Source of the DNA: a virus | Strand: one strand, 5' to 3' | Length of the DNA stretch: 31,702 bases | Virus genome (UHGV): UHGV-0114730 | Shown: one piece after another, positions 1-31,702 of the stretch | Numbering within the stretch: the first letter of the stretch is position 1 | Layout: every line of letters begins with the position of its first letter | Program-made: the position numbers and the translations under genes | The notes under the pieces: model-generated | The model's database searches: none | Told to the model about the DNA's origin: nothing | Seen by the model: the letters and a program-made list of their open reading frames with translations, nothing else

Positions 1-49
1 TACAATGCGGGTTTGAGCGGCATAAATTACCACTGAAAGCCCTTAAACG

Positions 50-1063
50 TTACTCTACTGTGGACACTGTGTGGACACTCTCGGCTTCAGTACCACCTCT
101 TAGCGGATTAAGAGAAATGGCGTCCTGAAGGTACTCTGGCGCAAAATGAGCGTAAACCATAGTTTGCTCAATCCGCGTGTGACCTAGTATCCGTTGTAGC
201 GTGATAATACTTCCTCCATTAATCATGAAATGAGTGGCAAAGCTGTGCCTTAGTGCATGTGTGGCTTGCCCCGTTGGCAAATCCGGTTTTATTGCTTTCA
301 TTGTTCGTCTGAAGCGAGGGTAATCAGCATCAGGGAATAAAAAACCTCGTTTGTTATCCGCGATCATTTTGGCAACAGCCTCTGAGATCGGGACGGTGCG
401 TGGTTTGTTTGTTTTCGTTTTAACAAACGTGACGCGGTTATGGATGATATTTTCTGCTTTCAAACGAGCTGCTTCTCCCCAACGTGCTCCTGTACTCAGG
501 CAAAGAATCGCAATCTTTTTGTTGTCGCCGTCAAGTGCTGCAAGCAGTAAGGCAATTTCTTCCTGTGTGAGATAGCCTGTTTCTGGTTTTTCCTCCTTAA
601 GCCTCTTTGTCCCTCTGATAGGGTGCTCACCAAAGAATAACTCCGCTTCAATCAGGGCTGTAAACATGCCGCTAATACATGTTAAATCACGATTGATACT
701 CGAAGGTTTAATACCCTGACTTCTTCGGGTGGCGCAGTACTGGCTGATAAGGGATTTCGTGATTTGAAATGCGCATGGGTCATTCGTTATTTTTGTGAAG
801 ATTTCAATTTTTCCAAGATTAGATTTCCCATGCTCTTCGTGTTTACCCTTTAAATCCCACCAGATCTGTGTCAGTTCCGACAGACGTCGTTTGTCTGTTG
901 GTTTTGATAGCCATTCTTTATTGTGGTGGTTGTACAACGTGTATTTTTCGAAAGCGACAGCTTCGCTTTTCTTATCAAACTTCCTACGGATGCGTTTTCC
1001 GTTACGTCCAGTAGGGCGGATGTCCACTTCATATCGACCATCATCGAGTTTTTTGATTGCCAT
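50..1063 (-). CDS. int: P2-type tyrosine integrase
   Basis: 337-aa ORF at prophage left end, leftward, followed by C; C-terminal R..HxxR..Y catalytic-region pattern (ALRHSFATH...LGH...Y) typical of tyrosine recombinases; size and position match P2 Int. Confidence 0.93.
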   Translation of the reverse strand: MAIKKLDDGRYEVDIRPTGRNGKRIRRKFDKKSEAVAFEKYTLYNHHNKEWLSKPTDKRRLSELTQIWWDLKGKHEEHGKSNLGKIEIFTKITNDPCAFQITKSLISQYCATRRSQGIKPSSINRDLTCISGMFTALIEAELFFGEHPIRGTKRLKEEKPETGYLTQEEIALLLAALDGDNKKIAILCLSTGARWGEAARLKAENIIHNRVTFVKTKTNKPRTVPISEAVAKMIADNKRGFLFPDADYPRFRRTMKAIKPDLPTGQATHALRHSFATHFMINGGSIITLQRILGHTRIEQTMVYAHFAPEYLQDAISLNPLRGGTEAESVHTVSTVE

Positions 1064-1178
1064 CAGAAAACCCTCCGAGTGGTACTTTTTTTTGCTACTA
1101 CTAATCGCTTTTTTCGTGGTGGCTGAAATTTAGCCACCAATAGTAGGCACTTGTGATGAATATATTCACGATAAATTG

Positions 1179-1478
1179 TTAACCAGTCTTTTGACCGGAG
1201 TGGGGCGACGTTGTTTCGTTTTGCCCAAAGTGTGCGAGAGCGGGCGCAATTTGCCCGGCTTCTGGAGCTACCTGATCAGTCATGAACCACAAAGTATATT
1301 TAGTAAATCTGGGATGTTGTAAGACCTTCATTATGGCTTCAACTCCAGCGTTTTTTGACCGGCTCTCATAGCTCGAAAGTGAGCTGTAGGCTACACCAGT
1401 TAATTCACTGAATTCTTTACGGTTTAACCTTTCAGATTCACGGATTAGCTTCAACTTCTCCGAAACGTCTATTGACAT
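1179..1478 (-). CDS. C: immunity repressor C
   Basis: Track ORF is 123 aa; start moved to internal ATG at 1476-1478 giving 99 aa (P2 C size); HTH-like N-terminus, divergent from cox. Confidence 0.85.
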   Translation of the reverse strand: MSIDVSEKLKLIRESERLNRKEFSELTGVAYSSLSSYESRSKNAGVEAIMKVLQHPRFTKYTLWFMTDQVAPEAGQIAPALAHFGQNETTSPHSGQKTG

Positions 1479-1555
1479 AATTACTCCGATTGCGTAATTT
1501 CTTGCTGATAGTGTGAAATGTTGTGCTTCTGGAGTTATCCTTTTAGGCAATAATT

Positions 1556-1575
1556 AGCCATTAGGAGCCATTAGA
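1556..1575. promoter_or_regulatory. candidate C operator: two direct AGCCATTAG repeats spaced 11 bp, in Pe/Pc switch region
   Basis: AGCCATTAG at 1556-1564 and 1567-1575, between divergent C and cox starts. Confidence 0.4.
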
Positions 1576-1599
1576 AGCACTAAGGGAGAATCGTAGCAG

Positions 1600-1875
1600 A
1601 TGAATAGACAGCTTGTAAGCGTGACTGATGCTGTGCCTTATCAGGAGTTTGCAAAACTCATTGGTAAAACTCCAAGAGCTGTAAGGGGCATGATTGAGAA
1701 AGGGAAATTACCAGTTATTGAGATTACTGACCCTCAGTCAGTATCGGGGCGTGCTGGTGAATATTGGGTATACCTTCCGGCATGGAATAACGGACTAAAA
1801 CTGGCTTATGAAAGCCGTCCTAAAGAGATTCGTGACGGCTGGTTGATGTGGTTAGGTCTCGGTGAACCACGTTAA
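1600..1875 (+). CDS. cox: Cox excisionase / repressor of Pc
   Basis: 91-aa ORF, first gene of early rightward operon, divergent from C; sequence recalled as near-identical to P2 Cox. Confidence 0.9.
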   Translation: MNRQLVSVTDAVPYQEFAKLIGKTPRAVRGMIEKGKLPVIEITDPQSVSGRAGEYWVYLPAWNNGLKLAYESRPKEIRDGWLMWLGLGEPR

Positions 1876-1885
1876 GGAGAACCGT

Positions 1886-2056
1886 ATGAATGAGCCTCGT
1901 TGTATTGCTCAGTTATTGCGTAACGAAAGCCCCAGGGCGATTGACTTCACCATCACCCACGGTAAGGGGCGTAAGGGAATCATTATCCGCACCAAAAAAC
2001 AGAGTCCGTTAAAAAAGGCTCTGACCTTTCTGAAAAGCCGGAGGGTCTGGAAATGA
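1886..2056 (+). CDS. small hypothetical protein (P2 orf78 position)
   Basis: Track ORF begins at GTG 1862; ATG 1886 preceded by AAGGAG (1874-1879) is the likelier start; position between cox and B. Confidence 0.5.
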   Translation: MNEPRCIAQLLRNESPRAIDFTITHGKGRKGIIIRTKKQSPLKKALTFLKSRRVWK

Positions 2057-2553
2057 CAGTGATGACGCTCAATCTCGTTGAAAAACAGCCAGCAGCTATG
2101 CGCCGGATAATTGGTAAGCATCTTGCCGTTCCTCGCTGGCAGGATACATGTGATTATTATAATCAGATGATGGAGCGCGAACGGTTAACGGTTTGCTTCC
2201 ATGCGCAGTTAAAACAGCGTCACGCAACGATGCGTTTTGAAGAAATGAACGACGTCGAACGTGAACGGCTGGTTTGTGCAATTGATGAATTGCGTGGGGC
2301 ATTCTCAAAACGCCGTCAGGTTGGCGCAAGTGAGTATGCATATATTAGTTTTTTAACAGTCAGTCAGCGTCGTACTTTATTTATGCATGCCGGATTGACT
2401 GAAAAAGAATTCAACCAGCCATACTGGCGAATTAATGAAGAATCATGTTACTGGCGTGATGCTTTATTCCGTGCATTACGTGAATTATTCAGCCTGTTTG
2501 AGTATGCACCGACAATTCTGACGTCGGTAAAACCAGAGCAATATCTGCATTAA
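2053..2553 (+). CDS. B: replication protein B (helicase-loader-like)
   Basis: 166 aa, same size and position as P2 B; start overlaps upstream stop. Confidence 0.88.
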   Translation: MTVMTLNLVEKQPAAMRRIIGKHLAVPRWQDTCDYYNQMMERERLTVCFHAQLKQRHATMRFEEMNDVERERLVCAIDELRGAFSKRRQVGASEYAYISFLTVSQRRTLFMHAGLTEKEFNQPYWRINEESCYWRDALFRALRELFSLFEYAPTILTSVKPEQYLH

Positions 2554-2616
2554 ATAATTAACCAGAGTTTTTAACGCACTTAATCGTGCGGGGCTTCTTT
2601 TTGCCTGGAGAAAGTC

Positions 2617-2841
2617 ATGCATACAGTTTCTGAAAATCAGTGCGGTAAATACGCATTACTGCTGCAACAGGCCAGAACCGAAGCACAGGCTGACGCTGCG
2701 ACGCGCTTTTCTTCTCATCTTGACACCATGATTCGCCACATCACAAAGGCGGAGTTATCCCGCGTGGAGATAGTCGAGCTGCTCAGTCAGGAGTCGGAAA
2801 AATTTCACAATATCGGATTGTCTCGCGGGGAGGTGCTTTGA
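2617..2841 (+). CDS. hypothetical early protein (P2 orf80 position)
   Basis: 74-aa ORF in early operon between B and A. Confidence 0.6.
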
Positions 2842-3143
2842 TGTCCTGTTCTCGTTCAGTTGTATTACTGAATAACGCCTTAAAAATCGCCGTTATGAAA
2901 AATGGCGATTTGTCTCTTATTCAACTTTGTCTTGATAAAGAAAAACGCGACATCACTGAATCTGTTATCGCGATTTATCAGAATGAATTAAACCTCCTGT
3001 CTGATGTGGTCAATTTACTTGTTAAACGCGCTGTATTTCACAAGCAAATCTCCTCCGTGGATGAACTGACGAAATTAACGACAGAAATTGCCAGCTATTG
3101 CGCTGATGAATTTAAAAAACTTAACGACAAAAGGAGCTGGTAA
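2838..3143 (+). CDS. hypothetical early protein (P2 orf81 position)
   Basis: 101-aa ORF, start overlaps stop of previous gene. Confidence 0.6.
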
Positions 3144-3367
3144 TGCCGGACAACGTAGATTTTATTCAGGAACAACAGGCTGAATTACTGGAGCGTCAGA
3201 TTAACGCGGCAAGGGTAAAACATTGCGGTGCTTCTGCGCTGGTTTGCGAAGAGTGTGACGCGCCAATACCTGCTGCCCGTCGTGCGGCTTATCCGTCAGC
3301 CACGCGTTGTGTTTCCTGCCAGTCAGTCTTTGAAGCAAAAAACAAACATTACCGGAGAACGGCATGA
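3143..3367 (+). CDS. TraR/DksA-type C4 zinc-finger protein (P2 orf82 position)
   Basis: 74 aa with CxxC...17 aa...CxxC (CEECDAPIPAARRAAYPSATRCVSCQ). Confidence 0.7.
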   Translation: MPDNVDFIQEQQAELLERQINAARVKHCGASALVCEECDAPIPAARRAAYPSATRCVSCQSVFEAKNKHYRRTA

Positions 3368-3639
3368 GTATTCGTATTGAAATTGGCGAACGTTATGTCG
3401 TTACCAGTGACAGCTTTCAGTTTATTCTCCACGAGAAAAAGAGAGCGGAAAGCGGTAAAAACGCCGGTCAGGAATGGCTGGCGGTGGTTGGTTATTATCC
3501 GAAATTAAGCCAGCTCGTTTCCGGCCTGATGCATCACGATATTCTGACCGGAAGCGCAAAGTCTTTTGCTGATTTAAACGCGCAGGTTGAGCAACTCAGC
3601 AGGCGTTGTTCAGAGGCTTTTGGCTCATATGGCCGTTAA
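3364..3639 (+). CDS. hypothetical early protein (P2 orf83 position)
   Basis: 91-aa ORF; stop overlaps start of A. Confidence 0.6.
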   Translation: MSIRIEIGERYVVTSDSFQFILHEKKRAESGKNAGQEWLAVVGYYPKLSQLVSGLMHHDILTGSAKSFADLNAQVEQLSRRCSEAFGSYGR

Positions 3640-5917
3640 AGCCTCCGGGCGTTTTGTCCCTCCGTCAGCATTTGCCGCAGGCACCGGTAAGGCGTTTACC
3701 GGTGCTTATGCATGGAACGCGCCACGCGAGGCTGTCGGGCGCGAAAGCCCCCTTACACGTGACGAGATGCGTCAGGTGCAAGGGGTTTTATCCACGATTA
3801 ACCGCCTGCCTTACTTTTTGCGCTCGCTGTTTACTTCACGCTATGACTACATCCGGCGCAATAAAAGCCCGGTGCACGGGTTTTATTTCCTCAGATCCAC
3901 TTTTCAGCGTCGTTTATGGCCGCGCATTGAGCGTGTGAATCAGCGCCATGAAATGAACACCGACGCGTCGTTGCTGTTTCTGGCAGAGCGCGACCAGTAT
4001 GCGCGCCTGCCGGGGATGAATGACAAGGAGCTGAAAAAGTTTGCTGCCCGTATCTCATCGCAGCTTTTCATGATGTATGAGGAACTCTGCGATGCCTGGG
4101 TTGATGCACATGGCGAAAAAGAATCGCTGTTTACGGATGAGGCGCAGGCTCACCTCTATGGTCATGTTGCTGGCGCTGCACGTGCTTTCAATATTTCCCC
4201 GCTTTACTGGAAAAAATACCGTAAAGGGCAGATGACCACGAGGCAGGCATATTCTGCCATTGCCCGCCTGTTTAACGATGAGTGGTGGACTCATCAGCTT
4301 AAAGGCCAGCGTATGCGCTGGCATGAGGCGTTACTGATTGCTGTCGGGGAGGTCAATAAAGACCGTTCTCCTTATGCCAGTAAACATGCCATTCGTGATG
4401 TGCGTGCGCGCCGCCAGGCAAATCTGGAATTTCTTAAATCGTGTGACCTTGAAAACAAGGAAACCGGCGAGCGCATCGACCTTATCAGTAAGGTGATGGG
4501 CAGTATTTCTAATCCTGAAATTCGCCGGATGGAGCTGATGAACACCATTGCCGGTATTGAGCGTTACGCCGCCGCAGAGGGTGATGTGGGGATGTTTATC
4601 ACGCTGACCGCGCCGTCAAAGTATCACCCGACACGTCAGGTCAGAAAAGGCGCAAGTAAAACCGTTCAGCTTAATCACGGCTGGAACGATGAGGCATTTA
4701 ATCCAAAGGATGCGCAGCGTTATCTCTGCCGCATCTGGAGCCTGATGCGCACGGCATTCAAGGATAATGATTTACAGGTCTACGGTTTGCGTGTCGTCGA
4801 GCCACACCACGACGGAACGCCGCACTGGCATATGATGCTTTTTTGTAATCCACGCCAGCGTAACCAGATTATCGAAATCATGCGTCGCTACGCGCTCAAA
4901 GAGGATGGAGACGAAAGAGGAGCTGCGCGAAACCGTTTTCAGGCAAAACACCTTAACCGGGGCGGTGCTGCGGGATATATCGCGAAATACATTTCAAAAA
5001 ACATCGACGGCTATGCACTGGATGGTCAGCTCGATAACGACACCGGCAGGCCGCTGAAAGACACTGCAGCGGCTGTTACCGCATGGGCGTCAACGTGGCG
5101 CATCCCGCAATTTAAAACGGTTGGCCTGCCGACAATGGGGGCTTACCGTGAACTACGCAAATTGCCGCGCGGCGTCAGCATTGCTGATGAGTTTGACGAG
5201 CGCGTCGAGGCTGCACGCGCCGCTGCAGACAGTGGTGATTTTGCGTTGTATATCAGCGCGCAGGGCGGGGCAAATGTCCCGCGCGATTGTCAGACTGTCA
5301 GGGTCGCCCGTAGCCCGTCGGATGACGTTAACGAGTACGAGGAAGAAGTCGAGAGAGTGGTCGGCATTTACGCGCCGCATCTCGGCGCGCGTCATATTCA
5401 TATCACCAGAACGACGGACTGGCGCATTGTGCCGAAAGTTCCGGTCGTTGAGCCTTTGACTTTAAAAAGCGGCATCGCCGCGCCTCGGAGTCCTGTCAAT
5501 AACTGTGGAAAGCTCACCGGTGGTGATACTTCCTTACCGGCTCCCACAGCTTCTGAGCACGCCGCAGCAGTGCTTAATCTGCTTGATGATGGTGTTATCG
5601 AATGGAGTGACCCGGAGGTCGTGAGGGCGCTCAGAGGTGCATTAAAACACGGACTGAGAAGACCAAACCGTCAGCAAAGAAACGGAAGCCCGTTAAAACC
5701 GCATGAAATAGCGCCATCAGCCAGGCTGACCCGGTCGGAACGAATGCAAATTACCCGTATCCGTGTTGACCTTGCTCAGAACGGTATCAGGCCGCAGCGA
5801 TGGGAGCTAGAAGTGTTGGCACGAGGCGCTACTATTAGTTATGAGGGACAAAAGTTTGCATTCTCGGGTAGTCATGAATGGAGTGGTTTTGCTGAACACT
5901 TTGATCTTTTTGAGTAG
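3629..5917 (+). CDS. A: replication initiation endonuclease A (rolling-circle initiator)
   Basis: Track ORF 776 aa; start moved to ATG 3629 giving 762 aa (P2 A is about 761); HxH-containing region (PHWHMMLF) typical of rolling-circle Rep proteins. Confidence 0.9.
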   Translation: MAVKASGRFVPPSAFAAGTGKAFTGAYAWNAPREAVGRESPLTRDEMRQVQGVLSTINRLPYFLRSLFTSRYDYIRRNKSPVHGFYFLRSTFQRRLWPRIERVNQRHEMNTDASLLFLAERDQYARLPGMNDKELKKFAARISSQLFMMYEELCDAWVDAHGEKESLFTDEAQAHLYGHVAGAARAFNISPLYWKKYRKGQMTTRQAYSAIARLFNDEWWTHQLKGQRMRWHEALLIAVGEVNKDRSPYASKHAIRDVRARRQANLEFLKSCDLENKETGERIDLISKVMGSISNPEIRRMELMNTIAGIERYAAAEGDVGMFITLTAPSKYHPTRQVRKGASKTVQLNHGWNDEAFNPKDAQRYLCRIWSLMRTAFKDNDLQVYGLRVVEPHHDGTPHWHMMLFCNPRQRNQIIEIMRRYALKEDGDERGAARNRFQAKHLNRGGAAGYIAKYISKNIDGYALDGQLDNDTGRPLKDTAAAVTAWASTWRIPQFKTVGLPTMGAYRELRKLPRGVSIADEFDERVEAARAAADSGDFALYISAQGGANVPRDCQTVRVARSPSDDVNEYEEEVERVVGIYAPHLGARHIHITRTTDWRIVPKVPVVEPLTLKSGIAAPRSPVNNCGKLTGGDTSLPAPTASEHAAAVLNLLDDGVIEWSDPEVVRALRGALKHGLRRPNRQQRNGSPLKPHEIAPSARLTRSERMQITRIRVDLAQNGIRPQRWELEVLARGATISYEGQKFAFSGSHEWSGFAEHFDLFE

Positions 5918-6038
5918 TTACCATAAAATGCTCAGGCTACCGCTTGGGATATCCCATGAAATGCTCAGTGTATACGCTTTATGCATAGGGTATAAAGGCT
6001 GCAATTGGCAACAATTGCGCTGACATGGAGATAAACTC

Positions 6039-6134
6039 ATGTTGAAACCAGTGAGAGTACGTCAGTACAATCGCTATCGTTTCGGACGTTGGGAGACGGT
6101 GCGTAAACACCGCCGTTCTTACCCAACGCGATGA
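6039..6134 (+). CDS. possible small basic ORF (31 aa, MLKPVRVRQYNRYRFGRWETVRKHRRSYPTR)
   Basis: Below track threshold; read directly from sequence in the A-to-cargo spacer; no RBS verified. Confidence 0.2.
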   Translation: MLKPVRVRQYNRYRFGRWETVRKHRRSYPTR

Positions 6135-6147
6135 AATGATATGCGAC

Positions 6148-8355
6148 CTAAGCGGTAGTATCTTCTATATTATTTTTCTCTTCATACATTTTAATAAAAT
6201 GTGAAACATCTCCCATAAGTTTAAATATTTCTTTAAATTGTTTGATGTAGATGTCAGGCGTTATTTCGCCCATGTCTGTTATATTTATCGAATCTGAGTG
6301 TGATCCTCTATTTATATATCGATAAAAAGCTTTGAAGTTACTGTTGCTCTCATTTTGTGCAAGCTTGTTCAATTCAAGTTGTAATTCGTTAGTTTTATGA
6401 ACAAATGCAAAGTAATATTCTAAGATATTCCTCATAGTATTAGGAATGACTACATTGTGAATTTTTCCATCTCTGGCATCCTTGAGTATTTGCCATAGAG
6501 ATTGATATTCATTTTGTAAACTATCTCTGCTGATGTTAGAAAAAGAGCTATATAGGTTTTTTGTTATTCTAAAAAGCTGATAGGTATTATTGAATTTTCT
6601 CTCTGAAATTGGTGCTAATTTTATTAGCTCATGAAAAAAATATAGATTATGAGTGAGGATTATCACTTTATCAGCAGAAGTGATAATGTCATAGTGAATC
6701 ATCGATGCTATATCATAGATATAGTTCTGTGATAGACTTGAAATGGGGTCATCAATAACGATTAAACTGTCTCGGTTGTCGAATTCATCTGTATTTGTTT
6801 GCCCCTTGCAATACTCAATAAAATAGAGGAATGTAATGAGGGTTTTTTCACCTTCGCTAAGAGATCTATATACGTTTTTACTTAGTGTATTATCTGAGCG
6901 AACTATAACGAAACTATTTTTTATGGTTGGGTGTTTATCAATATAGAAACAGGTAATGCCAAGGTTTTTTAATTTTGAGTTTATTGAGGAGATTGTTGTG
7001 TCGATATTGGATGTTTTATTTCTTAATTGTTTTATTTCATCATCAGTGTGGTTTATTTCGTTGTTGATAGAATCAATACATTCTTCGAGATTCTTGATAG
7101 TGATGTTGTTTTCAGCTTGAACTTTTTCTAAAACTTCCAGTTCTGTGTTGCAGTAGTTTCTCAATGCCCCCCAAAACTGATTTTGTATTTTACTTTGAGT
7201 AAGGTTAAATTGTTTTACCTTTTCATTAAGTGTATTAATTCTAACGTTATATTGTTTTATGTCTTTTAGAAGAGATTCTTCGATATCATTATCTTTATCA
7301 AGAGTTACACTGAGTGATGGATTTTGTATCTTGTTATTAATTAACTCAATGTTACTTTTTAGCATTTTCTCAAGGGAGGAAATGTGAGCGAGACTAGTTT
7401 TTCTTTCTTCAATTGTGATTGCCGTACAGTCGGTTAACTGTGTTTTTAGTAATTGAAGTTGTTCCTGAGTAGTGGATTCATAAATATGTTTTAGTTTTTC
7501 AATTGATGTTATTCTCTGAGCGTAGCTCTTATCAAAAATTTGCTCGAGTGCCTCTTTGAATTTATCATCAATGGTTTCTTTTTGACAAAAAGGGCAAGTG
7601 TCGTCAACTAAATAATCTTCCTTACCTTTTTTAACCCAATCTAGATTCTGAAGCTTTTTGATTGTTTCTGACAAATAGCTATTACTAGAATCAATGACAG
7701 GGGTCTTTAATAATTGTTCTTCATCAAAAGAAATAATATATGGATTATATGGGGATATTGTTTGTATGGTAGTGTTTTTATGATTCAACAATTCTCTGTA
7801 GTCAGTTAATAATTGATTTAAATCTATATCAGATAATCTAATAGAAGACTTCACCTTTGTGAAAAGGTTTCTTTTATTCTTGAGATACCCTGTCATTAAT
7901 GAGTTGATATCAGAGTTTCTTATGTGTTCGGTATTTAACCAGATTGATTCAGTGCAACTTGTTTCTGCTTCATTATTGCGGTCTTTAAATTTTCTACAAT
8001 TTGCTTTTGTTGCCTCTAGTTTTATTTTTAATTCTTTAACTATTTCTCTTTTCTTACTTATCTCTTTTTCGATTTCGGTGTTTTCTTTGCTTAATGTAAA
8101 AATGCCTTTTTGAACATCTTTATCAAAGAAGTTGTCTTCAATGAACTTTGTATTATAAACCAATGGACGATAGTTATTAATGTTTGTGCAGCGGCAGTCC
8201 CTATAGTCATCGTCTGCTGGATTATAGAAAAAATTTGATATGGTAGATTTCCCAGCTCCGTTTTGCCCGTAAAGGATATTTATTCTTTTTTCGAGGGATA
8301 TTTTCGTATATTTATTTTTGTCGTAGCTTGTTACATTTTTTAGACTAAGTTCCAT
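6148..8355 (-). CDS. cargo 1: ABC-type ATPase with zinc-hook-like coiled-coil insert and C-terminal RloC/PrrC-like putative anticodon-nuclease domain
   Basis: 735 aa; Walker A GQNGAGKST (aa 30-38, nt 8242-8268); CPFC (aa 254-257, nt 7585-7596) in long K/E/N-rich region; LSEGEK (aa 499-504); Walker B LIVIDDPISSLS (aa 531-542); R642-x3-E646 and H686; strongly AT-rich; sits where P2 has tin/old. Confidence 0.55.
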   Translation of the reverse strand: MELSLKNVTSYDKNKYTKISLEKRINILYGQNGAGKSTISNFFYNPADDDYRDCRCTNINNYRPLVYNTKFIEDNFFDKDVQKGIFTLSKENTEIEKEISKKREIVKELKIKLEATKANCRKFKDRNNEAETSCTESIWLNTEHIRNSDINSLMTGYLKNKRNLFTKVKSSIRLSDIDLNQLLTDYRELLNHKNTTIQTISPYNPYIISFDEEQLLKTPVIDSSNSYLSETIKKLQNLDWVKKGKEDYLVDDTCPFCQKETIDDKFKEALEQIFDKSYAQRITSIEKLKHIYESTTQEQLQLLKTQLTDCTAITIEERKTSLAHISSLEKMLKSNIELINNKIQNPSLSVTLDKDNDIEESLLKDIKQYNVRINTLNEKVKQFNLTQSKIQNQFWGALRNYCNTELEVLEKVQAENNITIKNLEECIDSINNEINHTDDEIKQLRNKTSNIDTTISSINSKLKNLGITCFYIDKHPTIKNSFVIVRSDNTLSKNVYRSLSEGEKTLITFLYFIEYCKGQTNTDEFDNRDSLIVIDDPISSLSQNYIYDIASMIHYDIITSADKVIILTHNLYFFHELIKLAPISERKFNNTYQLFRITKNLYSSFSNISRDSLQNEYQSLWQILKDARDGKIHNVVIPNTMRNILEYYFAFVHKTNELQLELNKLAQNESNSNFKAFYRYINRGSHSDSINITDMGEITPDIYIKQFKEIFKLMGDVSHFIKMYEEKNNIEDTTA

Positions 8356-8777: not shown

Positions 8778-8781
8778 ATGT

Positions 8782-23115: not shown

Positions 23116-23551
23116 GTTGTATGGGCTATGGTGAGAGCTTACATATCTATGGCACAGAGTAAAGCCTAATCTGACAGTCCGCTCTGTGCTAGGAGCGGAC
23201 TCTGTTAAGGTGATTAAACGCTTGAGAGCGAATGTAGTTTTGATGCTAGCTGCTAATATGTAGCATCTTACCGGCTGTGTTAACGTTGGCCTGTCCAGCA
23301 AGGGTTACGGGCAGATAGTGAATGAGCACATCTTAAAGTCTAAACTTTGAATCAACGGCTCCTTGAGACAGACCAAGGCGGCAGGTGCCTTTAATGGCAT
23401 AACCGGCGCAGATCTGTGATGATGTTCACAACTAACCTGAGGTTTCAGTTTTCATACTCTGAGAGTACGATTGTTGTAGAATATTTATGTTGTATTATAT
23501 TTGAATTTTTTATGTAATGTTCTGACAATTACTGATTGAAGAGGGAAGGAG

Positions 23552-25006: not shown

Positions 25007-25012
25007 TATCGA

Positions 25013-25038
25013 TAAGCGATCTTGCCAAAGATCGCTTA
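25013..25038 (+). terminator. perfect 11-bp-stem hairpin immediately 3' of cargo 2 (possible terminator)
   Basis: TAAGCGATCTT-GCCA-AAGATCGCTTA starting 7 nt after the stop; weak U-tract. Confidence 0.4.
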
Positions 25039-25226
25039 CATCTTGTATGTCTATCAAAAGAACCTAGATCGCTGTAACTTAGTACATATAAAAGTTAATA
25101 AATCAAATCTAGTATTTTGCTATAAAGATAAATGTCCGCTTCTTGCTCAAAGCAGACTGTCAGATTTGATAACTTTTGGGCTATGTAAATTGTCAGTCGG
25201 AAAATGAGTAAGTTCAAATCAGGACA

Positions 25227-25249
25227 GGCGGGCGGATTGCCCGCCTTTT
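25227..25249 (+). terminator. intrinsic terminator upstream of FI
   Basis: GGCGGGC-GGATT-GCCCGCC hairpin followed by TTTT. Confidence 0.6.
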
Positions 25250-25349
25250 CTTTATCTGTTGTTTCATCCACTGACCAGCCAGGTCAAATAGCGTCTCATG
25301 CTCTGCACAACAGAAAATAGTTGCACCCATTAACCACGGAGTTAAACGG

Positions 25350-26540
25350 ATGAGTGACTATCATCACGGCGTGCAGGTGCTGGAGATTAACGACGGCACC
25401 CGCGTCATTTCCACCGTATCCACGGCCATTGTCGGCATGGTCTGCACGGCCAGCGATGCGGATGCGGAAACCTTCCCCCTCAATAAACCTGTGCTGATTA
25501 CCAATGTGCAGAGCGCAATTGCAAAGGCCGGTAAAAAAGGCACGCTGGCGGCATCGTTGCAGGCCATCGCCGACCAGTCAAAACCGGTCACCGTTGTCGT
25601 GCGCGTGGAAGACGGCACCGGCGATGACGAAGAAACGAAACTCGCGCAGACCGTTTCCAATATCATCGGCACCACCGACGAAAACGGTCAGTACACCGGA
25701 CTGAAAGCCCTGCTGGCGGCGGAGTCGGTAACAGGTGTTAAACCGCGTATTCTTGGTGTGCCGGGACTGGACACCAAAGAGGTGGCTGTTGCACTGGCAT
25801 CAGTCTGTCAGAAGCTGCGCGCTTTCGGGTATATCAGCGCATGGGGCTGTAAAACCATTTCCGAGGTGAAAGCCTACCGTCAGAATTTCAGCCAGCGTGA
25901 GCTGATGGTCATCTGGCCGGATTTCCTCGCATGGGATACGGTCAGCAGCACCACCGCCACCGCGTATGCCACCGCCCGTGCGCTGGGTCTGCGCGCTAAA
26001 ATCGACCAGGAGCAGGGCTGGCATAAAACGCTGTCCAATGTCGGGGTGAATGGTGTTACCGGCATCAGCGCATCTGTATTCTGGGATTTGCAGGAGTCCG
26101 GCACCGATGCTGACCTGCTTAACGAGTCAGGCGTCACAACGCTGATTCGCCGTGACGGTTTCCGCTTCTGGGGTAACCGTACCTGCTCTGATGACCCGCT
26201 GTTCCTCTTTGAAAACTACACCCGCACCGCGCAGGTGCTGGCCGACACGATGGCTGAGGCGCACATGTGGGCGGTGGACAAGCCCATCACCGCAACGCTG
26301 ATTCGCGACATCGTTGACGGCATCAATGCCAAATTCCGTGAGCTGAAAACAAACGGCTATATCGTGGATGCGACCTGCTGGTTCAGCGAAGAATCCAACG
26401 ATGCGGAAACCCTCAAGGCCGGAAAACTGTATATCGACTACGACTATACACCGGTGCCTCCTCTCGAAAACCTGACCCTGCGCCAGCGTATTACCGATAA
26501 ATACCTGGCAAATCTGGTCACCTCGGTTAACAGCAATTAA
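25350..26540 (+). CDS. FI: contractile tail sheath protein
   Basis: 396 aa, size and order as P2 FI. Confidence 0.92.
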   Translation: MSDYHHGVQVLEINDGTRVISTVSTAIVGMVCTASDADAETFPLNKPVLITNVQSAIAKAGKKGTLAASLQAIADQSKPVTVVVRVEDGTGDDEETKLAQTVSNIIGTTDENGQYTGLKALLAAESVTGVKPRILGVPGLDTKEVAVALASVCQKLRAFGYISAWGCKTISEVKAYRQNFSQRELMVIWPDFLAWDTVSSTTATAYATARALGLRAKIDQEQGWHKTLSNVGVNGVTGISASVFWDLQESGTDADLLNESGVTTLIRRDGFRFWGNRTCSDDPLFLFENYTRTAQVLADTMAEAHMWAVDKPITATLIRDIVDGINAKFRELKTNGYIVDATCWFSEESNDAETLKAGKLYIDYDYTPVPPLENLTLRQRITDKYLANLVTSVNSN

Positions 26541-26552
26541 GGAGCCTGACCG

Positions 26553-27071
26553 ATGGCAATGCCGCGCAAACTCAAGTTAATGAACGTCTTTCTGAACGGC
26601 TACAGCTATCAGGGCGTCGCGAAGTCCGTCACGCTACCAAAACTGACCCGTAAGCTCGAAAACTATCGCGGTGCGGGGATGAACGGCAGCGCACCGGTAG
26701 ACCTCGGCCTTGATGACGATGCGCTGTCAATGGAGTGGTCGCTCGGTGGCTTCCCGGATTCGGTTATCTGGGAGCTTTACGCCGCAACCGGTGTGGATTC
26801 CGTACCGATTCGTTTTGCAGGCTCTTACCAGCGCGACGATACCGGCGAAACGGTGGCCGTCGAGGTGGTCATGCGTGGACGTCAGAAAGAAATCGACACC
26901 GGCGAGGGCAAACAGGGAGAAGACACCGAGTCGAAAATCTCCGTGGTCTGCACCTATTTCCGGCTGACGATGGACGGTAAGGAGCTGGTCGAAATCGACA
27001 CCATCAACATGATTGAGAAGGTGAACGGCGTCGACCGGCTGGAGCAACACCGCCGCAATATCGGCCTGTGA
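26553..27071 (+). CDS. FII: tail tube protein
   Basis: 172 aa, size and order as P2 FII. Confidence 0.92.
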   Translation: MAMPRKLKLMNVFLNGYSYQGVAKSVTLPKLTRKLENYRGAGMNGSAPVDLGLDDDALSMEWSLGGFPDSVIWELYAATGVDSVPIRFAGSYQRDDTGETVAVEVVMRGRQKEIDTGEGKQGEDTESKISVVCTYFRLTMDGKELVEIDTINMIEKVNGVDRLEQHRRNIGL

Positions 27072-27127
27072 TTTTCATCCGGTCAGCCTGGCTGACCGGT
27101 TAACCCCGATTCAGAAGTGAGAAAACC

Positions 27128-27403
27128 ATGAACAAAGAAAATGTGATTACCCTGGACAATCCGGTCAAGCGTGGTGAGCAGGTTATCGAACAGGTCACGC
27201 TGATGAAACCTAATGCCGGGACGCTGCGCGGTGTCAGTCTGGCTGCGGTCGCGAACTCCGAAGTCGATGCACTGATTAAGGTGCTGCCGCGCATGACGGC
27301 ACCGATGCTGACCGAGCAGGAAGTCGCCGCGCTGGAACTGCCTGACCTTGTGGCGCTGGCCGGTAAGGTGGTCGGTTTTTTGTCGCCGAACTCGGTGCAG
27401 TGA
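27128..27403 (+). CDS. E: tail assembly chaperone E
   Basis: 91 aa, ends at TGA 27401-27403; contains slippery site near 3' end. Confidence 0.88.
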   Translation: MNKENVITLDNPVKRGEQVIEQVTLMKPNAGTLRGVSLAAVANSEVDALIKVLPRMTAPMLTEQEVAALELPDLVALAGKVVGFLSPNSVQ

Positions 27404-27555
27404 CGTTCCCGAAAAATCTCTCGGTCGATGACCTGATGGCGGATGTGGCAGTGATATTTCACTGGCCGCCATCAGAACTGTATCCCATGAGTCTGACCGA
27501 ACTCATCACATGGCGCGAAAAGGCGCTCCGGCGAAGCGGAAACACGAATGAGTAA
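27128..27555 (+). CDS. E': tail assembly chaperone E+E' (programmed -1 frameshift product)
   Basis: Slippery T-TTT-TTG at 27376-27382; -1 frame is open from 27382 to TAA 27553-27555, giving about 142 aa and overlapping the T start. Confidence 0.75.
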
Positions 27556-29995
27556 CAATGTAAAATTACAGGTATTGCTCAGGGCTGTTGACCAGGCATC
27601 CCGCCCGTTTAAATCCATCCGCACAGCGAGTAAGTCGCTGTCGGGGGATATCCGGGAAACACAAAAATCACTGCGCGAGCTGAACGGTCACGCATCCCGT
27701 ATTGAGGGATTTCGCAAGACCAGCGCACAGCTTGCCGTGACTGGTCATGCACTTGAAAAGGCACGGCAGGAAGCCGAAGCCCTTGCCACACAGTTTAAAA
27801 ACACTGAACGTCCGACCCGTGCTCAGGCGAAAGTGCTGGAATCCGCAAAGCGTGCGGCGGAGGACTTACAGGCGAAATATAACCGCCTGACAGATTCCAT
27901 TAAACGCCAGCAGCGGGAACTGGCCGCTGTGGGAATTAATACCCGCAATCTTGCACATGATGAGCAGGGACTGAAAAACCGTATCAGTGAAACCACCGCA
28001 CAGCTTAACCGTCAGCGTGACGCGCTGGCGCGTGTCAGTGCACAACAGGCAAAACTTAACGCAGTAAAACAGCGTTATCAGGCCGGAAAGGAACTGGCCG
28101 GAAATATGGCCTCAGTGGGCGCTGCCGGTGTGGGGATTGCTGCTGCGGGAACGATGGCCGGAGTTAAGTTGCTGATGCCCGGTTATGAGTTTGCGCAGAA
28201 AAACTCAGAATTGCAGGCCGTGCTCGGTGTGGCAAAAGACTCCGCCGAAATGGCTGCACTACGCAAGCAGGCGCGCCAGCTCGGCGACAATACCGCAGCC
28301 TCGGCAGATGATGCAGCCGGTGCGCAGATTATTATTGCGAAAGCCGGTGGGGATGTTGATGCCATTCAGGCGGCAACGCCGGTCACGCTGAATATGGCGC
28401 TGGCGAACCGTCGCACGATGGAAGAAAACGCCGCCCTGCTGATGGGGATGAAATCCGCCTTTCAGCTTTCAAACGATAAGGTCGCTCATATCGGGGATGT
28501 TCTCTCCATGACGATGAACAAAACCGCCGCCGATTTTGACGGTATGAGCGATGCGCTGACCTATGCCGCACCAGTGGCAAAAAATGCCGGTGTCAGCATT
28601 GAAGAAACCGCCGCAATGGTCGGGGCGCTGCATGACGCAAAAATTACTGGTTCAATGGCGGGGACGGGAAGCCGTGCCGTGTTAAGCCGCCTGCAGGCAC
28701 CGACGGGAAAAGCATGGGATGCACTCAAAGAGCTTGGTGTGAAAACCTCAGACAGCAAGGGAAACACCCGACCAGTATTTACCATTCTGAAAGAAATGCA
28801 GGCCAGTTTTGAGAAAAACCGGCTCGGTACTGCCCAGCAGGCTGAATACATGAAAACTATTTTCGGGGAGGAGGCCAGCTCAGCCGCCGCCGTGCTGATG
28901 ACTGCCGCCTCAACTGGAAAGCTGGACAAACTGACCGCTGCGTTTAAAGCCTCAGACGGGAAGACCGCTGAGCTGGTAAATATCATGCAGGACAACCTCG
29001 GCGGTGACTTTAAGGAGTTTCAGTCCGCTTATGAGGCGGTGGGGACTGACCTGTTTGACCAGCAGGAAGGCGCACTGCGTAAGCTCACGCAGACGGCCAC
29101 AAAGTATGTGTTAAAACTCGACGGCTGGATACAGAAAAACAAATCACTGGCGTCAACCATCGGCATCATTGTCGGTGGTGCACTGGCGCTGATTGGTGTC
29201 ATCGGTGCCATTGGCCTCGTAGCCTGGCCGGTTATCACCGGCATCAATGCCATTATCGCGGCAGCAGGCGCAATGGGGGCAATCTTCACGACGGTTGGTA
29301 GTGCCGTTATGACGGCCATCAGTGCGATTAGCTGGCCGGTTGTGGCCGTGGTGGCTGCCATTGTCGCCGGGGCGTTGCTTATCCGTAAATACTGGGAGCC
29401 TGTCAGCGCATTCTTTGGCGGTGTGGTTGAAGGGCTGAAAGCGGCATTTGCGCCGGTGGGGGAACTGTTCACGCCACTTAAGCCGCTGTTTAACTGGCTG
29501 GGTGAAAAGTTACAGGCCGCGTGGCAGTGGTTTAAAAACCTGATTGCCCCGGTCAAAGCCACCCAGGACACCCTGAACCGTTGCCGTGACACGGGCGTCA
29601 TGTTCGGGCAGGCACTGGCTGACGCGCTGATGCTGCCGCTTAATGCGTTCAACAAACTGCGCAGCGGTATTGACTGGGTACTGGAAAAACTCGGTGTTAT
29701 CAACAAAGAGTCAGACACACTTGACCAGACCGCCGCCAGAACTCATGCCGCCACGTATGGCACCGGTGGTTATATTCCGGCGACCAGCTCTTATGCAGGT
29801 TATCAGGCTTATCAGCCGGTTACGGCACCGGCTGGCCGCTCTTATGTGGACCAGAGTAAAAACGAATATCACATCAGCCTGACGGGTGGTACTGCGCCGG
29901 GGACACAGCTTGACCGCCAGTTACAGGATGCGCTCGAAAAATACGAGCGGGATAAACGTGCGCGCGCCCGTGCCAGCATGATGCATGACGGTTAA
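27548..29995 (+). CDS. T: tail tape measure protein
   Basis: 815 aa, helical N-half, Gly/Ala-rich hydrophobic region; size as P2 T. Confidence 0.92.
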   Translation: MSNNVKLQVLLRAVDQASRPFKSIRTASKSLSGDIRETQKSLRELNGHASRIEGFRKTSAQLAVTGHALEKARQEAEALATQFKNTERPTRAQAKVLESAKRAAEDLQAKYNRLTDSIKRQQRELAAVGINTRNLAHDEQGLKNRISETTAQLNRQRDALARVSAQQAKLNAVKQRYQAGKELAGNMASVGAAGVGIAAAGTMAGVKLLMPGYEFAQKNSELQAVLGVAKDSAEMAALRKQARQLGDNTAASADDAAGAQIIIAKAGGDVDAIQAATPVTLNMALANRRTMEENAALLMGMKSAFQLSNDKVAHIGDVLSMTMNKTAADFDGMSDALTYAAPVAKNAGVSIEETAAMVGALHDAKITGSMAGTGSRAVLSRLQAPTGKAWDALKELGVKTSDSKGNTRPVFTILKEMQASFEKNRLGTAQQAEYMKTIFGEEASSAAAVLMTAASTGKLDKLTAAFKASDGKTAELVNIMQDNLGGDFKEFQSAYEAVGTDLFDQQEGALRKLTQTATKYVLKLDGWIQKNKSLASTIGIIVGGALALIGVIGAIGLVAWPVITGINAIIAAAGAMGAIFTTVGSAVMTAISAISWPVVAVVAAIVAGALLIRKYWEPVSAFFGGVVEGLKAAFAPVGELFTPLKPLFNWLGEKLQAAWQWFKNLIAPVKATQDTLNRCRDTGVMFGQALADALMLPLNAFNKLRSGIDWVLEKLGVINKESDTLDQTAARTHAATYGTGGYIPATSSYAGYQAYQPVTAPAGRSYVDQSKNEYHISLTGGTAPGTQLDRQLQDALEKYERDKRARARASMMHDG

Positions 29996-30009
29996 GGAGG
30001 TGACGAAAA

Positions 30010-30489
30010 ATGATGCTCGCGTTAGGTATGTTTGTTTTTATGCGCCAGACGCTGCCACACCAGACCATGCAGCGTGAATCAGATTATCGCTGGCCGTCAA
30101 ATTCCCGTATCGGTAAACGGGATGCCTTTCAGTTTCTCGGTGTGGGTGAGGAAAACATTACGCTTGCCGGCGTGCTTTATCCCGAACTGACCGGCGGGAA
30201 GCTGACGATGACCACGCTCAGGCTGATGGCAGAGGAAGGCCGGGCGTGGCCGTTGCTGGATGGCACCGGCATGATTTACGGCATGTATGTCATCAGCAGG
30301 GTGAGTGAAACAGGGAGTATTTTCTTTGCAGACGGCACACCCCGGAAAATTGATTTTACGCTGTCACTCACCCGCGTTGATGAATCACTGGCCGCGCTTT
30401 ATGGCGATATCGGTAAACAGGCGGAGTCGCTCATCGGTAAGGCCGGCAGTCTGGCGACCAGATTCACAGGTATGATGGGGGCGGGATAA
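30010..30489 (+). CDS. U: tail protein U
   Basis: 159 aa, size and order as P2 U. Confidence 0.9.
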   Translation: MMLALGMFVFMRQTLPHQTMQRESDYRWPSNSRIGKRDAFQFLGVGEENITLAGVLYPELTGGKLTMTTLRLMAEEGRAWPLLDGTGMIYGMYVISRVSETGSIFFADGTPRKIDFTLSLTRVDESLAALYGDIGKQAESLIGKAGSLATRFTGMMGAG

Positions 30490-31652
30490 TGCTGGATGCG
30501 CTGACATTTGATGCAGGCAGTACGCTGACGCCGGATTACATGCTGATGCTCGACAGCAGGGATATTACCGGCAATATCAGCGACCGTCTGATGAGCATGA
30601 CTCTGACGGATAACCGGGGCTTTGAAGCTGACCAGCTTGATATTGAACTGAACGATGCCGACGGGCAGGTCGGGCTGCCGGTTCGTGGCGCTGTCCTGAC
30701 GGTGTATATCGGCTGGAAAGGTTTTGCCCTGGTATGCAAAGGGAAATTCACCGTTGATGAGGTTGAACACCGGGGCGCGCCGGATGTGGTCACCATCCGC
30801 GCCCGGAGTGCAGATTTCCGCGGGACGCTCAATTCCCGCCGGGAAGGCTCCTGGCATGACACCACGCTCGGTGCGATTGTTGAGGCGATAGCCTCCCGTA
30901 ACAGGCTGGAAGCCAGTGTCGCTCCGTCACTGGCCGGAATTAAAATCCCGCACATCGACCAGTCGCAGGAGTCTGATGCGAAATTCCTGACCCGTCTTGC
31001 AGAACGCAACGGCGGTGAGGTGTCGGTAAAAATGGGAAAACTGTTGTTTCTCAAAGCGGGGCAGGGGGTGACGGCCAGCGGTAAAAAAATCCCGCAGGTC
31101 ACCATCACCCGCAGCGACGGCGACCGCCATCATTTTGCGATTGCTGACCGTGGAGCCTATACCGGCGTAACGGCAAAGTGGTTACACACCAAAGACCCGA
31201 AGCCGCAAAAGCAGAAGGTAAAACTGAAACGCAAAAAGAAAGAAAAACACCTGCGCGCACTGGAGCACCCGAAAGCAAAACCGGTCAGGCAGAAGAAAGC
31301 GCCAAAAGTACCGGAAGCGCGCGAAGGTGAATACATGGCCGGTGAGGCTGACAACGTTTTTGCCCTGACCACGGTATATGCCACAAAAGCGCAGGCCATG
31401 CGCGCCGCTCAGGCAAAGTGGGATAAGCTGCAACGGGGCGTTGCGGAGTTCTCCATCAGTCTGGCTACTGGTCGGGCAGATATTTACACGGAAACGCCGG
31501 TCAAAGTGTCAGGCTTTAAGCGCGTCATAGACGAGCAGGACTGGACAATCACTAAGGTGACACATTTTCTGAATAATAGCGGTTTCACGACGTCCTTAGA
31601 GCTTGAGGTCAGGCTTTCTGATGTGGAGTACGAAACAGAAGATGATGAGTGA
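30489..31652 (+). CDS. D: tail protein D
   Basis: 387 aa, start overlaps U stop; last late gene before expected ogr. Confidence 0.9.
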   Translation: MLDALTFDAGSTLTPDYMLMLDSRDITGNISDRLMSMTLTDNRGFEADQLDIELNDADGQVGLPVRGAVLTVYIGWKGFALVCKGKFTVDEVEHRGAPDVVTIRARSADFRGTLNSRREGSWHDTTLGAIVEAIASRNRLEASVAPSLAGIKIPHIDQSQESDAKFLTRLAERNGGEVSVKMGKLLFLKAGQGVTASGKKIPQVTITRSDGDRHHFAIADRGAYTGVTAKWLHTKDPKPQKQKVKLKRKKKEKHLRALEHPKAKPVRQKKAPKVPEAREGEYMAGEADNVFALTTVYATKAQAMRAAQAKWDKLQRGVAEFSISLATGRADIYTETPVKVSGFKRVIDEQDWTITKVTHFLNNSGFTTSLELEVRLSDVEYETEDDE

Positions 31653-31702
31653 TGTTTTTATTTTATCTGTTTGTTTTGTAAGGATAAATTAACTAAAATG
31701 GC

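Follow-up and report, generated by a model that had tools for sequence, protein, structure and literature searches.

Gene content and organization of the prophage

The whole stretch of DNA analysed here (hereafter the window; 31,702 nt) is nearly all of a 32.1-kb E. coli P2-like (Peduovirus-type) prophage, with a backbone that shares ~96% nucleotide identity with P2 and with many P2-like phages. Judged from the sequence, this P2-likeness is not a chance match, and P2-like prophage matches are present in 3255 of 5426 complete E. coli genomes. Genes for replication, head, lysis and tail are all present, together with cos, ori and the E/E' frameshift signal (Table 1).

Table 1. Features of the P2-like prophage, in window coordinates
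Feature	Position	Strand	Remarks
attL, right part (P' side): Cox-binding region and Int P'-arm sites	1..84		P' arm 58..84 identical to P2
int, tyrosine integrase, 337 aa	50..1063	-	99.7% identity to P2 Int, full length; clean ORF
Immunity switch: C repressor 1179..1478, cox 1600..1875	1179..1875	C -, cox +	Non-P2 immunity type
Early/replication operon: orf78, B, orf80, orf81, orf82, orf83, A	1886..5917	+	Full length, 94-100% identity to P2
ori nick region within A	5467..5507		41 nt, identical to P2
Hotspot 1, A-Q (old/tin) slot	5918..8564		Cassette in place of P2 orf91-tin-old
Cargo 1, RloC-like ABC-ATPase/HEPN anticodon-nuclease homologue, 735 aa	6148..8355	-	Assigned by Pfam, PADLOC and motifs
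Candidate promoter (promoter-like site) of cargo 1	8399..8370
cos, 19-nt cohesive-end sequence GGCGAGGCGGGGAAAGCAC	8594..8612	+	Exact P2 cosL/cosR match
tQ terminator	8755..8776		Identical to P2
Head/packaging/lysis: Q, P; O, N, M, L, X, Y, K, lysA, lysB, lysC, R, S	8782..17962	Q, P -; others +	Full length, 91-100% identity to P2
Shared pO/pP activator site	11652..11682		Identical to P2
Empty S-V slot	17963..18028		66 nt between S and V; P2 orf30 absent
Baseplate/tail-fibre operon: V, W, J, I, H, G	18029..23115	+	V-I 96-100% identity to P2
Hotspot 2, G-FI (Z/fun) slot	23201..25120		Cassette in place of P2 fun(Z)
Cargo 2, Sll1717-family P-loop ATPase, 484 aa	23552..25006	+	NCBIfam NF047389
Hairpin 3' of cargo 2	25013..25038
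Tail operon: FI, FII, E, E+E', T, U, D	25350..31652	+	Full length, 98-99.5% identity to P2
E/E' -1 frameshift slippery site TTTTTTG	27376..27382		Conserved; slippery region 40/41 vs P2
D gene	30489..31652	+	Full-length ORF
ogr promoter	31671..31700	+	Identical to P2; last feature of the window

We compared all 42 P2 proteins (NC_001895) with the window by tblastn. All backbone proteins were recovered full length and gap-free, namely int, C, cox, orf78, B, orf80-83, A, Q, P, O, N, M, L, X, Y, K, lysA/B/C, R, S, V, W, J, I, H, G, FI, FII, E, T, U and D, in an order collinear with P2 (int-C-cox-B-A, Q-P, O-N-M-L, V-W-J-I-H-G and FI-FII-E-T-U-D). All 38 ORFs, the two cargo genes counted, start with ATG, contain one terminal stop and have a length divisible by three, and the frameshifts or truncations sought in the P2 alignment were found in none of the backbone genes. 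These data confirm the initial annotation in its description of a P2-family prophage with an intact backbone, in full-length reading frames from int to D. The coupled junctions that it had pointed out are also present, as ATGA-type 4-nt overlaps at orf78/B, orf82/orf83 and V/W, and 1-nt TGATG/TAATG overlaps occur at orf80/81, orf81/82, L/X, Y/K and U/D.

Contrary to what had been proposed, large deviations from the P2 backbone extend beyond the two cargo genes: C/cox is swapped, H is remodelled, G is only 74% identical to P2, and orf30 is missing. By tblastn, C and Cox are 64.6 and 83.5% identical to their P2 counterparts, and the segment 1064..1900 shares 99.9% identity with Escherichia phage vB_EcoM-720R8 (ON470606.1). 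H (709 aa, vs 669 aa in P2) is a mosaic, with residues 1-251 96% identical to P2 and a C-terminus ~37% identical, and its gene contains a tandem array of 4.5 copies of a 132-nt repeat (21001..21588); a comparable array was not detected in P2 H. The E+E' frameshift product reads through to 27555. Late-promoter sites were located at two positions, pO/pP and pF, and pF keeps its TGT-N12-CCA half-sites. Scanning the window for tRNAs and, at the gathering threshold, against Rfam returned no match; the cargo cassettes are therefore devoid of known RNA elements or retron ncRNA.

Integration site and prophage ends

Position 1 of the window corresponds to P2 position 24413, 30 nt to the right of the attP core. 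Two contigs that match the window over 1..15917 and 1..9695 with 0 mismatches extend beyond its left edge, and in both a 27-bp attL core lies at -56..-30, adjoining yegR. A third contig, matching 17548..31702 (14.1 kb) with 1 mismatch, extends beyond the right edge and displays ogr (31734..31952), the attR core (32055..32081) and then cyaR/yegQ. This ogr ORF, outside the window, encodes a product with 100% identity to P2 Ogr. The two flanks come from different assemblies, each covering part of the window, so that the att pair does not lie on one exact-source contig; the two cores, 27/27 on both sides, are paired in the near-identical prophage of E. coli PKF8. The same flank layout was observed in relatives that reach the flanks, in nine of nine for attL and 10 of 13 for attR, the exceptions being two contigs located at other chromosomal sites and one anomalous duplicated assembly.

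The prophage is integrated by a P2-type Int at a 27-bp core that serves as the 3' terminator of cyaR, an sRNA gene; the site lies between yegR and yegQ/trhP. We found nothing usable in the literature linking CyaR with the P2 attachment site. The initial annotation had correctly placed the int stop at the window edge (stop codon 50..52), attL just left of the window, the right edge 50 nt past D and ogr as the next gene rightward, and the att repeats that it expected in the flanks are those described above. Its equation of the window edges with the prophage ends, on the other hand, does not hold, with the attL core 30-56 nt to the left of position 1, and ogr and the attR core 32-380 nt past position 31702. 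The window looks to have been delimited by gene coordinates, from int to D with +/-50 nt, and it therefore lacks the essential gene ogr and both att cores.

Cassettes in the two P2 hotspots

Both accessory slots are occupied, as had been noted, by inserts of low GC content, 31% in A-Q and 35% in G-FI vs 54% for the backbone. At the first, P2 homology ends after A and returns ~30 nt before cos; at the second, it stops at 23200 and returns at 25121. Both slots are documented P2 hotspots (PMC9122126; bioRxiv 10.1101/2024.10.15.618418; PMC13586616). P2 old, tin, orf91, fun(Z) and orf30 gave no tblastn match in the window, which rules out Old, Tin or Fun homologues in the slots. The slot spacers contain small ORFs (5841..6023, 8582..8743 and 25022..25207), which had no family match; they overlap A, cos or a terminator, and we treated them as non-coding. 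A nucleotide search of the cassettes against 50,697 phage records returned no match for either, and protein-level searches with the cargos against phage records retrieved only distant or partial relatives. The prophage offers a clean natural case of one P2-like element with cargo in both classical hotspots together; ~10% of P2 elements with complete defence systems have systems in more than one hotspot (PMC13586616).

The A-Q cargo is RloC-like

Cargo 1 matches Pfam AAA_13 over its full length (9e-111) and PADLOC PDC-S06 (1e-249), which PADLOC lists as candidate only. RloC was defined by a size of 658-897 aa, ABC-ATPase motifs, a CXXC motif and an Arg-X3-Glu-X36-52-His triad, with Ser often before the His (PMC2610378). 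Cargo 1 has each of these traits: an RloC-like size, the ABC motifs (Walker A GQNGAGKS at residues 30-37, LSEGE at 499-503, Walker B LIVIDD at 531-536, and T568-H569 with the switch His), a CXXC zinc-hook motif (CPFC, 254-257) in a helical insert splitting the ATPase head, and the C-terminal triad R642-x3-E646-x39-S685-H686. These motifs are invariant across 46 homologues (21-68% identity). Against the PDB, cargo 1 gave no match in a single-sequence search and only ABC-head or coiled-coil matches in a profile search. From its motifs, cargo 1 is a Rad50/SMC-like ABC head, split by the helical CPFC insert and fused to a predicted C-terminal domain of the HEPN anticodon-nuclease type.

The identical sequence is system #5, 'AAA_13, RloC-like', with 420 P2-hotspot occurrences, in Table S5B of Rousset et al. 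2022 (PMC9122126), and it is absent among the systems reported there as tested or active; our search for biochemical or phage-challenge data on the P2 RloC-like gene found none. By analogy with RloC, cargo 1 would stay latent in the lysogen until infection-associated DNA damage, or another trigger, led it to cut tRNA anticodon loops; such cleavage would stop translation and amount to abortive infection.

The G-FI cargo is an Sll1717-family ATPase

Cargo 2 matches NF047389, 'P-loop ATPase, Sll1717 family', with 207.4 bits (cutoff 75) over residues 12-471 of 484, and displays a Walker A at 49-56 and a Walker B at 173-177. Structural comparison indicates an ORC/Cdc6/STAND-like AAA+ domain followed by a C-terminal domain that we read as winged-helix-like. 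Just ~40 aa precede the ATPase and the C-terminal domain is small, with no effector domain. There is no above-threshold Pfam match: in a test with the AAA_16, ORC-CDC6-like and nSTAND profiles, cargo 2 itself reached 15.5 bits vs the Pfam cutoff of 32.6, and across 44 family members the matches were sub-threshold only, with AAA_16 in 43 (best 3.8e-5) and with ORC-CDC6-like in 18. Single-sequence and profile searches against the PDB gave no match, no validated defence model of PADLOC-DB v2 matched, the sole PADLOC match being weak and partial (candidate PDC-M28C, E = 0.0026), and we found no experimental characterisation of the Sll1717 family in the literature.

The family is large, with 1466 clusters at 50% identity. 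Homologues of cargo 2 occupy the same slot in E. coli P2-like prophages and in a diverged Serratia P2-like prophage, and over 23380..25009 a Klebsiella homologue has 85% nucleotide identity to the window. Further loci are the end of a Klebsiella lambdoid prophage, where the neighbour is a NACHT gene, a site next to RM genes in P. syringae, an N. europaea island that also encodes ArdA, ParDE, Fic and a resolvase and, for a distant homologue of 24% identity, a Pf filamentous phage; one Neisseria homologue is flanked by housekeeping genes. A partner gene was sought and none is conserved across the homologue loci, each of which has a lone gene. Some relatives carry N-terminal Schlafen/AlbA_2, CHAT or cold-shock (CSD) domains on the same ATPase core, a pattern of conflict-system NTPases. 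We regard cargo 2 as a candidate single-gene defence system. Most likely it would bind nucleic acid and oligomerise in an ATP-dependent manner, and so sense or block superinfecting phage; as it has no effector domain, this mechanism is speculative.

State of the prophage and roles of the cargos

With high confidence, a structurally intact P2-like prophage with two hotspot cargos that likely exclude other phages best explains the observations on gene content and genomic contexts, on motifs and folds and on the att sites. Since the structure is complete, with ogr and the att cores just beyond the window, the prophage is probably competent for excision and particle production. The induction assay that had been suggested would be a poor test of this, P2-type prophages being classically not SOS- or UV-inducible. 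We consider it improbable that the element only looks complete, being a grounded (defective) prophage in which the lytic cycle is blocked by missense mutations or by an incompatible mosaic of immunity, tail fibre and right arm, and which is kept solely for its defence cargo. In favour of a grounded prophage, the right arm is a recombination tract (26.8-31.7 kb) with ~2.5% divergence from the PKF8 prophage, which is near-identical elsewhere, both H and G have a mosaic make-up, and a decayed P2 remnant lies at the same chromosomal site in K-12. However, none of the 36 backbone genes has a frameshift, truncation or IS insertion, the cis sites are intact and both 27-bp att cores are perfect, and the immunity module matches that of a deposited phage (99.9%). 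Moreover, proteins identical to the cargos recur in hundreds of blocks of the collection, and all contigs inspected place them in the same complete layout, consistent with a spreading phage.

Within this intact prophage, the cargos would be 'moron' genes expressed in the lysogen, most likely excluding other phages. For cargo 1, a Rad50/SMC-like DNA-repair or DNA-restricting ATPase (Lamassu/Wadjet-like) with no tRNase activity is very unlikely: its Rad50/SMC-type matches are limited to the ABC head and the coiled coil, whereas the all-helical C-terminal domain carries the invariant R-x3-E...S-H triad at the RloC-defined spacing, no partner nuclease or kleisin gene is found in the A-Q slot, and sources call its homologues 'wobble nucleotide-excising tRNase' or 'translation-disabling ACNase'. 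The prophage is of a known kind and conceptually brings nothing new, its two hotspots and its RloC-like cargo having been catalogued before. We put forward, tentatively, that the cargo 2 ATPase may be a new stand-alone anti-phage system, a minimal ORC/Cdc6/STAND-like AAA+ protein free of effector, which could block superinfecting phage solely by oligomerising, with ATP, on nucleic acid or a phage protein; its relatives would have added Schlafen or CHAT effectors to the shared core. A non-defence role, as a DNA-binding ATPase akin to Cdc6, DnaA, TnsC or MuB for replication, partition or target selection of the element, or else as an anti-defence factor, seems rather unlikely to us; in its favour, the best structural matches include Cdc6/ORC, TnsC, MuB and DnaA, zero known defence models matched, and in roughly one in four P2 hotspot loci the cargo is plasmid-partition genes instead of defence genes (PMC9122126). 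As the family is widespread and mobile, with some Schlafen/CHAT fusions, a positive phage-challenge result would define a new defence family, which is what anti-phage activity of cargo 2, if true, would mean.

Comparison with known systems

P2 (NC_001895 / AF063097) has the same gene order and full backbone, with most proteins 94-100% identical (Int 99.7%, Ogr 100%), and its cos, ori nick region, attP core, P' arm, pO/pP site and ogr promoter are all identical to those found here. The present prophage differs in its length (32.1 kb vs 33.6 kb for P2), in having the RloC-like gene in place of old, tin and orf91 and the P-loop ATPase, on the opposite strand, in place of fun(Z), in the absence of orf30, in its immunity type (C 65%, Cox 84%) and in its diverged H C-terminus and G. 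Two of the matching contigs, ERZ651873 NODE_528 and GCA_044470865.1 JBHZOG010000003.1, show 0 and 1 mismatches to the window within the stretches that each covers. Among complete E. coli genomes none matches the window exactly, the closest, with 128 mismatches, being PKF8 (NZ_CP156813.1), whose prophage is collinear, carries both cargo genes and occupies the same chromosomal site. PKF8 has 3 mismatches across 1..26798 but ~2.5% divergence over 26.8-31.7 kb (FII-D), which indicates a recombination tract.

Cargo 2 resembles STAND and ORC/Cdc6-like NTPases in its predicted AAA+/STAND fold with Walker A and B motifs, but is only 10-17% identical to ORC/Cdc6-, Sso1545- and STAND-type AAA+ NTPases (e.g. 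Avs, BrxC, RADAR RdrA). Unlike the tripartite Avs-like STAND NTPases, it lacks an effector domain and any repeat or sensor domain, and partner genes are absent. Cargo 1 differs from RloC of Geobacillus kaustophilus (Davidov & Kaufmann 2008, PMC2610378) in being prophage-borne, of low GC content and not linked to an R-M locus, and, compared through the motif definition, it resembles RloC in size, ABC motifs, CXXC and triad spacing.

Backbone genes and cis elements

By sequence comparison, the window is a P2-like prophage. In megablast, P2 and dozens of Peduovirus genomes match window 1..25000 at ~96% identity with coverage broken at two places only, and matches to the window occur in 3255 of 5426 complete E. 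coli genomes. We searched all 42 annotated P2 proteins (NC_001895) against the window using tblastn and found each backbone protein from Int to D at full length and without gaps, mostly at 94–100% identity. All 38 ORFs are clean, and the E+E' product of the −1 frameshift is open throughout. The full-length frames described in the initial annotation are thus upheld by the alignment that it had proposed as a check. The overlapping junctions are also real, with ATGA start/stop overlaps at orf78/B, orf82/83 and V/W and TGATG or TAATG overlaps at five further junctions, and the int stop (50..52) and the end of D (31652) lie where they had been placed. In this search, old, tin, orf91, fun(Z) and orf30 had no match in the window; neither did ogr, because this gene sits beyond the window edge. 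The cis elements are listed below, together with the accessory genes and the prophage ends.

Features of the prophage in window numbering (negative positions and those above 31702 extend into the flanks of matching contigs)
Feature	Position	Strand	Description
att core, left	-56..-30		27-bp repeat AAAAAATAAGCCCGTGTAAGGGAGATT
Int P' arm	58..84		exact match to P2
ori nick region	5467..5507		exact match to P2
Cargo 1, RloC-like gene	6148..8355	-	735 aa, 31% GC
cos	8594..8612		exact match to P2
tQ terminator	8755..8776		exact match to P2
pO/pP activator site	11652..11682		exact match to P2
Cargo 2, Sll1717-family ATPase gene	23552..25006	+	484 aa, 35% GC
pF	upstream of FI		TGT-N12-CCA half-sites kept
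E/E' slippery region	27368..27407		40/41 vs P2
ogr promoter	31671..31700		exact match to P2
ogr	31734..31952		from contig L037
att core, right	32055..32081		27-bp repeat AAAAAATAAGCCCGTGTAAGGGAGATT

Prophage ends, integration site and viability

The window begins at the equivalent of P2 position 24413, with the attP core of P2 30 nt to the left. Exact-protein look-ups gave three contigs that match the window, two of them reaching the left flank and one the right. L039 and L040 are identical to window 1..15917 and 1..9695, respectively, with 0 mismatches, and both carry the 27-bp P2 core with yegR to its left. L037 matches 17548..31702 with one mismatch and continues into ogr, 100% identical to P2 Ogr, then a terminator and the second core. 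The att repeat is exactly 27 bp long and the element measures 32,138 bp from core to core. Among the fetched relatives that reach the flanks, the ends are laid out in the same way in all 9 that cover the attL side and in 10 of the 13 that cover the attR side, the exceptions being L035 and L036, which lie at other chromosomal sites, and the anomalous duplicated assembly L004. Both att cores and ogr map outside the window, which was therefore evidently cut at gene coordinates, from int to D ± 50 nt, and is devoid of both cores and of one essential gene. The view that its edges coincide with the prophage ends is only approximately true, with the perfect repeats expected in the flanks present on both sides, slightly further out.

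Note that the sRNA gene cyaR (Rfam CyaR_RyeE, 100.7 bits; minus strand at 14511..14596 of L037, i.e. window coordinates 32058..32143; 4115..4201 of the K-12 contig L042) ends, at its 3' terminator, in the 27-bp P2 att core. The prophage is inserted at this 3' end, with the terminator regenerated. In K-12, cyaR likewise ends in this core, which borders PR-X, a cryptic P2 remnant (ogrK, yegZ).

The intact ORFs, cis sites and ogr, the perfect att cores and a size inside the range of deposited P2-like phage genomes (29.5–34.8 kb) all favor viability, and we consider it quite likely that the element is a viable phage. P2-type prophages are classically not SOS-inducible.

Further deviations from P2 and mosaicism

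The two cargo genes had been presented as the only large deviations from the backbone, but there are others. The C/cox immunity module is of a different type from that of P2 (C 65% and Cox 84% identical) and shares 99.9% identity with its counterpart in the deposited phage vB_EcoM-720R8; the tail fiber H has 709 aa versus 669 in P2, with a diverged C-terminus; G is 74% identical; and the orf30 slot is empty (S-V gap, 17963..18028). Within the H gene, a 132-nt (44-aa) unit is repeated in tandem 4.5 times with 87% matches (21001..21588), whereas TRF detected no such 132-nt array in P2 H; this array probably accounts for the longer fiber shaft. In relatives sharing the cargo-1 or T protein, the orf30 slot, the third variable slot of P2, is occupied, by an AAA/TIR_2-type gene in L012 (1..282) and a RelA_SpoT-domain gene in L035 (111..1190).

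The closest complete E. coli genome, PKF8, carries a collinear prophage with 128 mismatches, three in the first 26.8 kb and about 125 (~2.5%) over 26799..31702. The diverged stretch spans FII-E-T-U-D with a sharp boundary and, on this alignment, is a recombination tract relative to PKF8. In the contigs L033–L038, the same T allele is found in prophages whose Z/fun-slot cargo is quite different and also at other chromosomal sites. In L004 (GCA_949281755.1, 1..21455), the tail genes around cargo 2 are duplicated and fragmented: the G/FI/FII set is present twice and the T/U/D-like ORFs are split. This contig probably reflects either a mis-assembly or P2-like prophages in tandem.

An RloC-like gene in the A-Q slot

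Both accessory slots are occupied, as first described, with cargo 1 between A and Q and cargo 2 between G and FI. Cargo 1 matches Pfam AAA_13 across its full length (E = 9e-111), the PADLOC candidate PDC-S06 (E = 1e-249) and phrog_2801. Its protein has every sequence feature by which RloC is recognized (Davidov & Kaufmann, PMC2610378): a size within 658–897 aa, Walker A (30-37), the ABC signature LSEGE (499-503), Walker B (531-536), the switch His H569, a CXXC motif (CPFC, 254-257) within a long helical insert and the C-terminal triad R642-x3-E646-x39-S685-H686. By analogy with RloC, it is likely a latent ATPase-gated HEPN tRNase, which would cut anticodon loops upon infection-linked DNA damage and thereby lead to abortive infection.

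The public collection lists the exact protein in 643 blocks, and 17 of the 5426 complete E. coli genomes carry the cassette. The gene lies between A and Q in all contigs read, once beside a retron: in the metagenomic relative L014 (7524..9412), a retron (RVT_1 and an Ec48-type effector) adjoins the identical gene, so that two systems are stacked in this slot.

A Sll1717-family ATPase gene in the G-FI slot

Cargo 2 has no Pfam family above threshold and matches NCBIfam NF047389, "P-loop ATPase, Sll1717 family", at 207 bits (cutoff 75); we found no literature on this name. The only PADLOC candidate, PDC-M28C, is a weak partial match. The protein has Walker A (49-56) and Walker B (173-177) motifs and no effector domain, and its C-terminal domain is read as winged-helix-like from the secondary structure of the model. 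P2 homology stops at 23200 and returns at 25121; within this slot, 23380..25009 is shared with Klebsiella at 85% nucleotide identity, which delimits a mobile cassette.

The family is large, with >2600 members retrieved by one search and 1466 clusters when grouped at 50% identity. Members of ~480 aa in Neisseria, Nitrosomonas, Pseudomonas and Vibrio are ~60% identical, which suggests horizontal spread. The contexts are mobile or defensive, except for one Neisseria copy between housekeeping genes, and no conserved partner gene was found across those examined. They comprise the G-FI slot of E. coli P2-like prophages (298 blocks) and of a diverged Serratia P2-like prophage (62% identity), the end of a Klebsiella lambdoid prophage adjoining a NACHT gene (94%), RM genes in P. 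syringae, an N. europaea island with ArdA, ParDE, Fic and a resolvase and, for a distant homologue (24%), a Pf filamentous phage. In the Klebsiella contigs (L020–L023, 6001..9641), the copy is distal to the tail-fiber genes and convergent with the gene for a 623-aa NACHT NTPase.

Some relatives carry a Schlafen/AlbA_2, CHAT protease or cold-shock domain N-terminal to the same ATPase core (among P0237, P0253, P0379, P0367 and P0273, with Schlafen/AlbA_2 in three clusters), a pattern typical of conflict-system NTPases. These fusions suggest a family of effector-swapping NTPases, with cargo 2 as the core-only form. Our best guess, a speculative one, is that cargo 2 may act as an ATP-dependent oligomerizing sensor or blocker, perhaps targeting phage nucleic acid.

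Comparison with known P2 elements

Prophages with the same backbone illustrate how rapidly Z/fun-slot cargo turns over: this slot holds a 537-aa AAA_21+DUF4435 (fused PARIS-like) gene in L034 (5914..7527) and an HEPN, an HNH or a 175-aa unknown gene in others. About 10% of P2 elements with complete defense systems have systems in different hotspots (PMC13586616). ABC-HEPN proteins of the PrrC/RloC type are present in prophages (Anantharaman et al, 2013), and the sequence identical to cargo 1 is P2-hotspot system #5, "AAA_13", annotated "RloC-like" with 420 occurrences (Rousset et al, 2022; PMC9122126 Table S5B); we found no record in the literature of any test of the P2 version. Overall, since the old/tin and Z/fun slots are the classical, repeatedly described P2 hotspots (PMC9122126; bioRxiv 10.1101/2024.10.15.618418; PMC13586616), the element is one more case of a well-known P2-type prophage, with cargo 1 already catalogued and cargo 2 named by NCBIfam.
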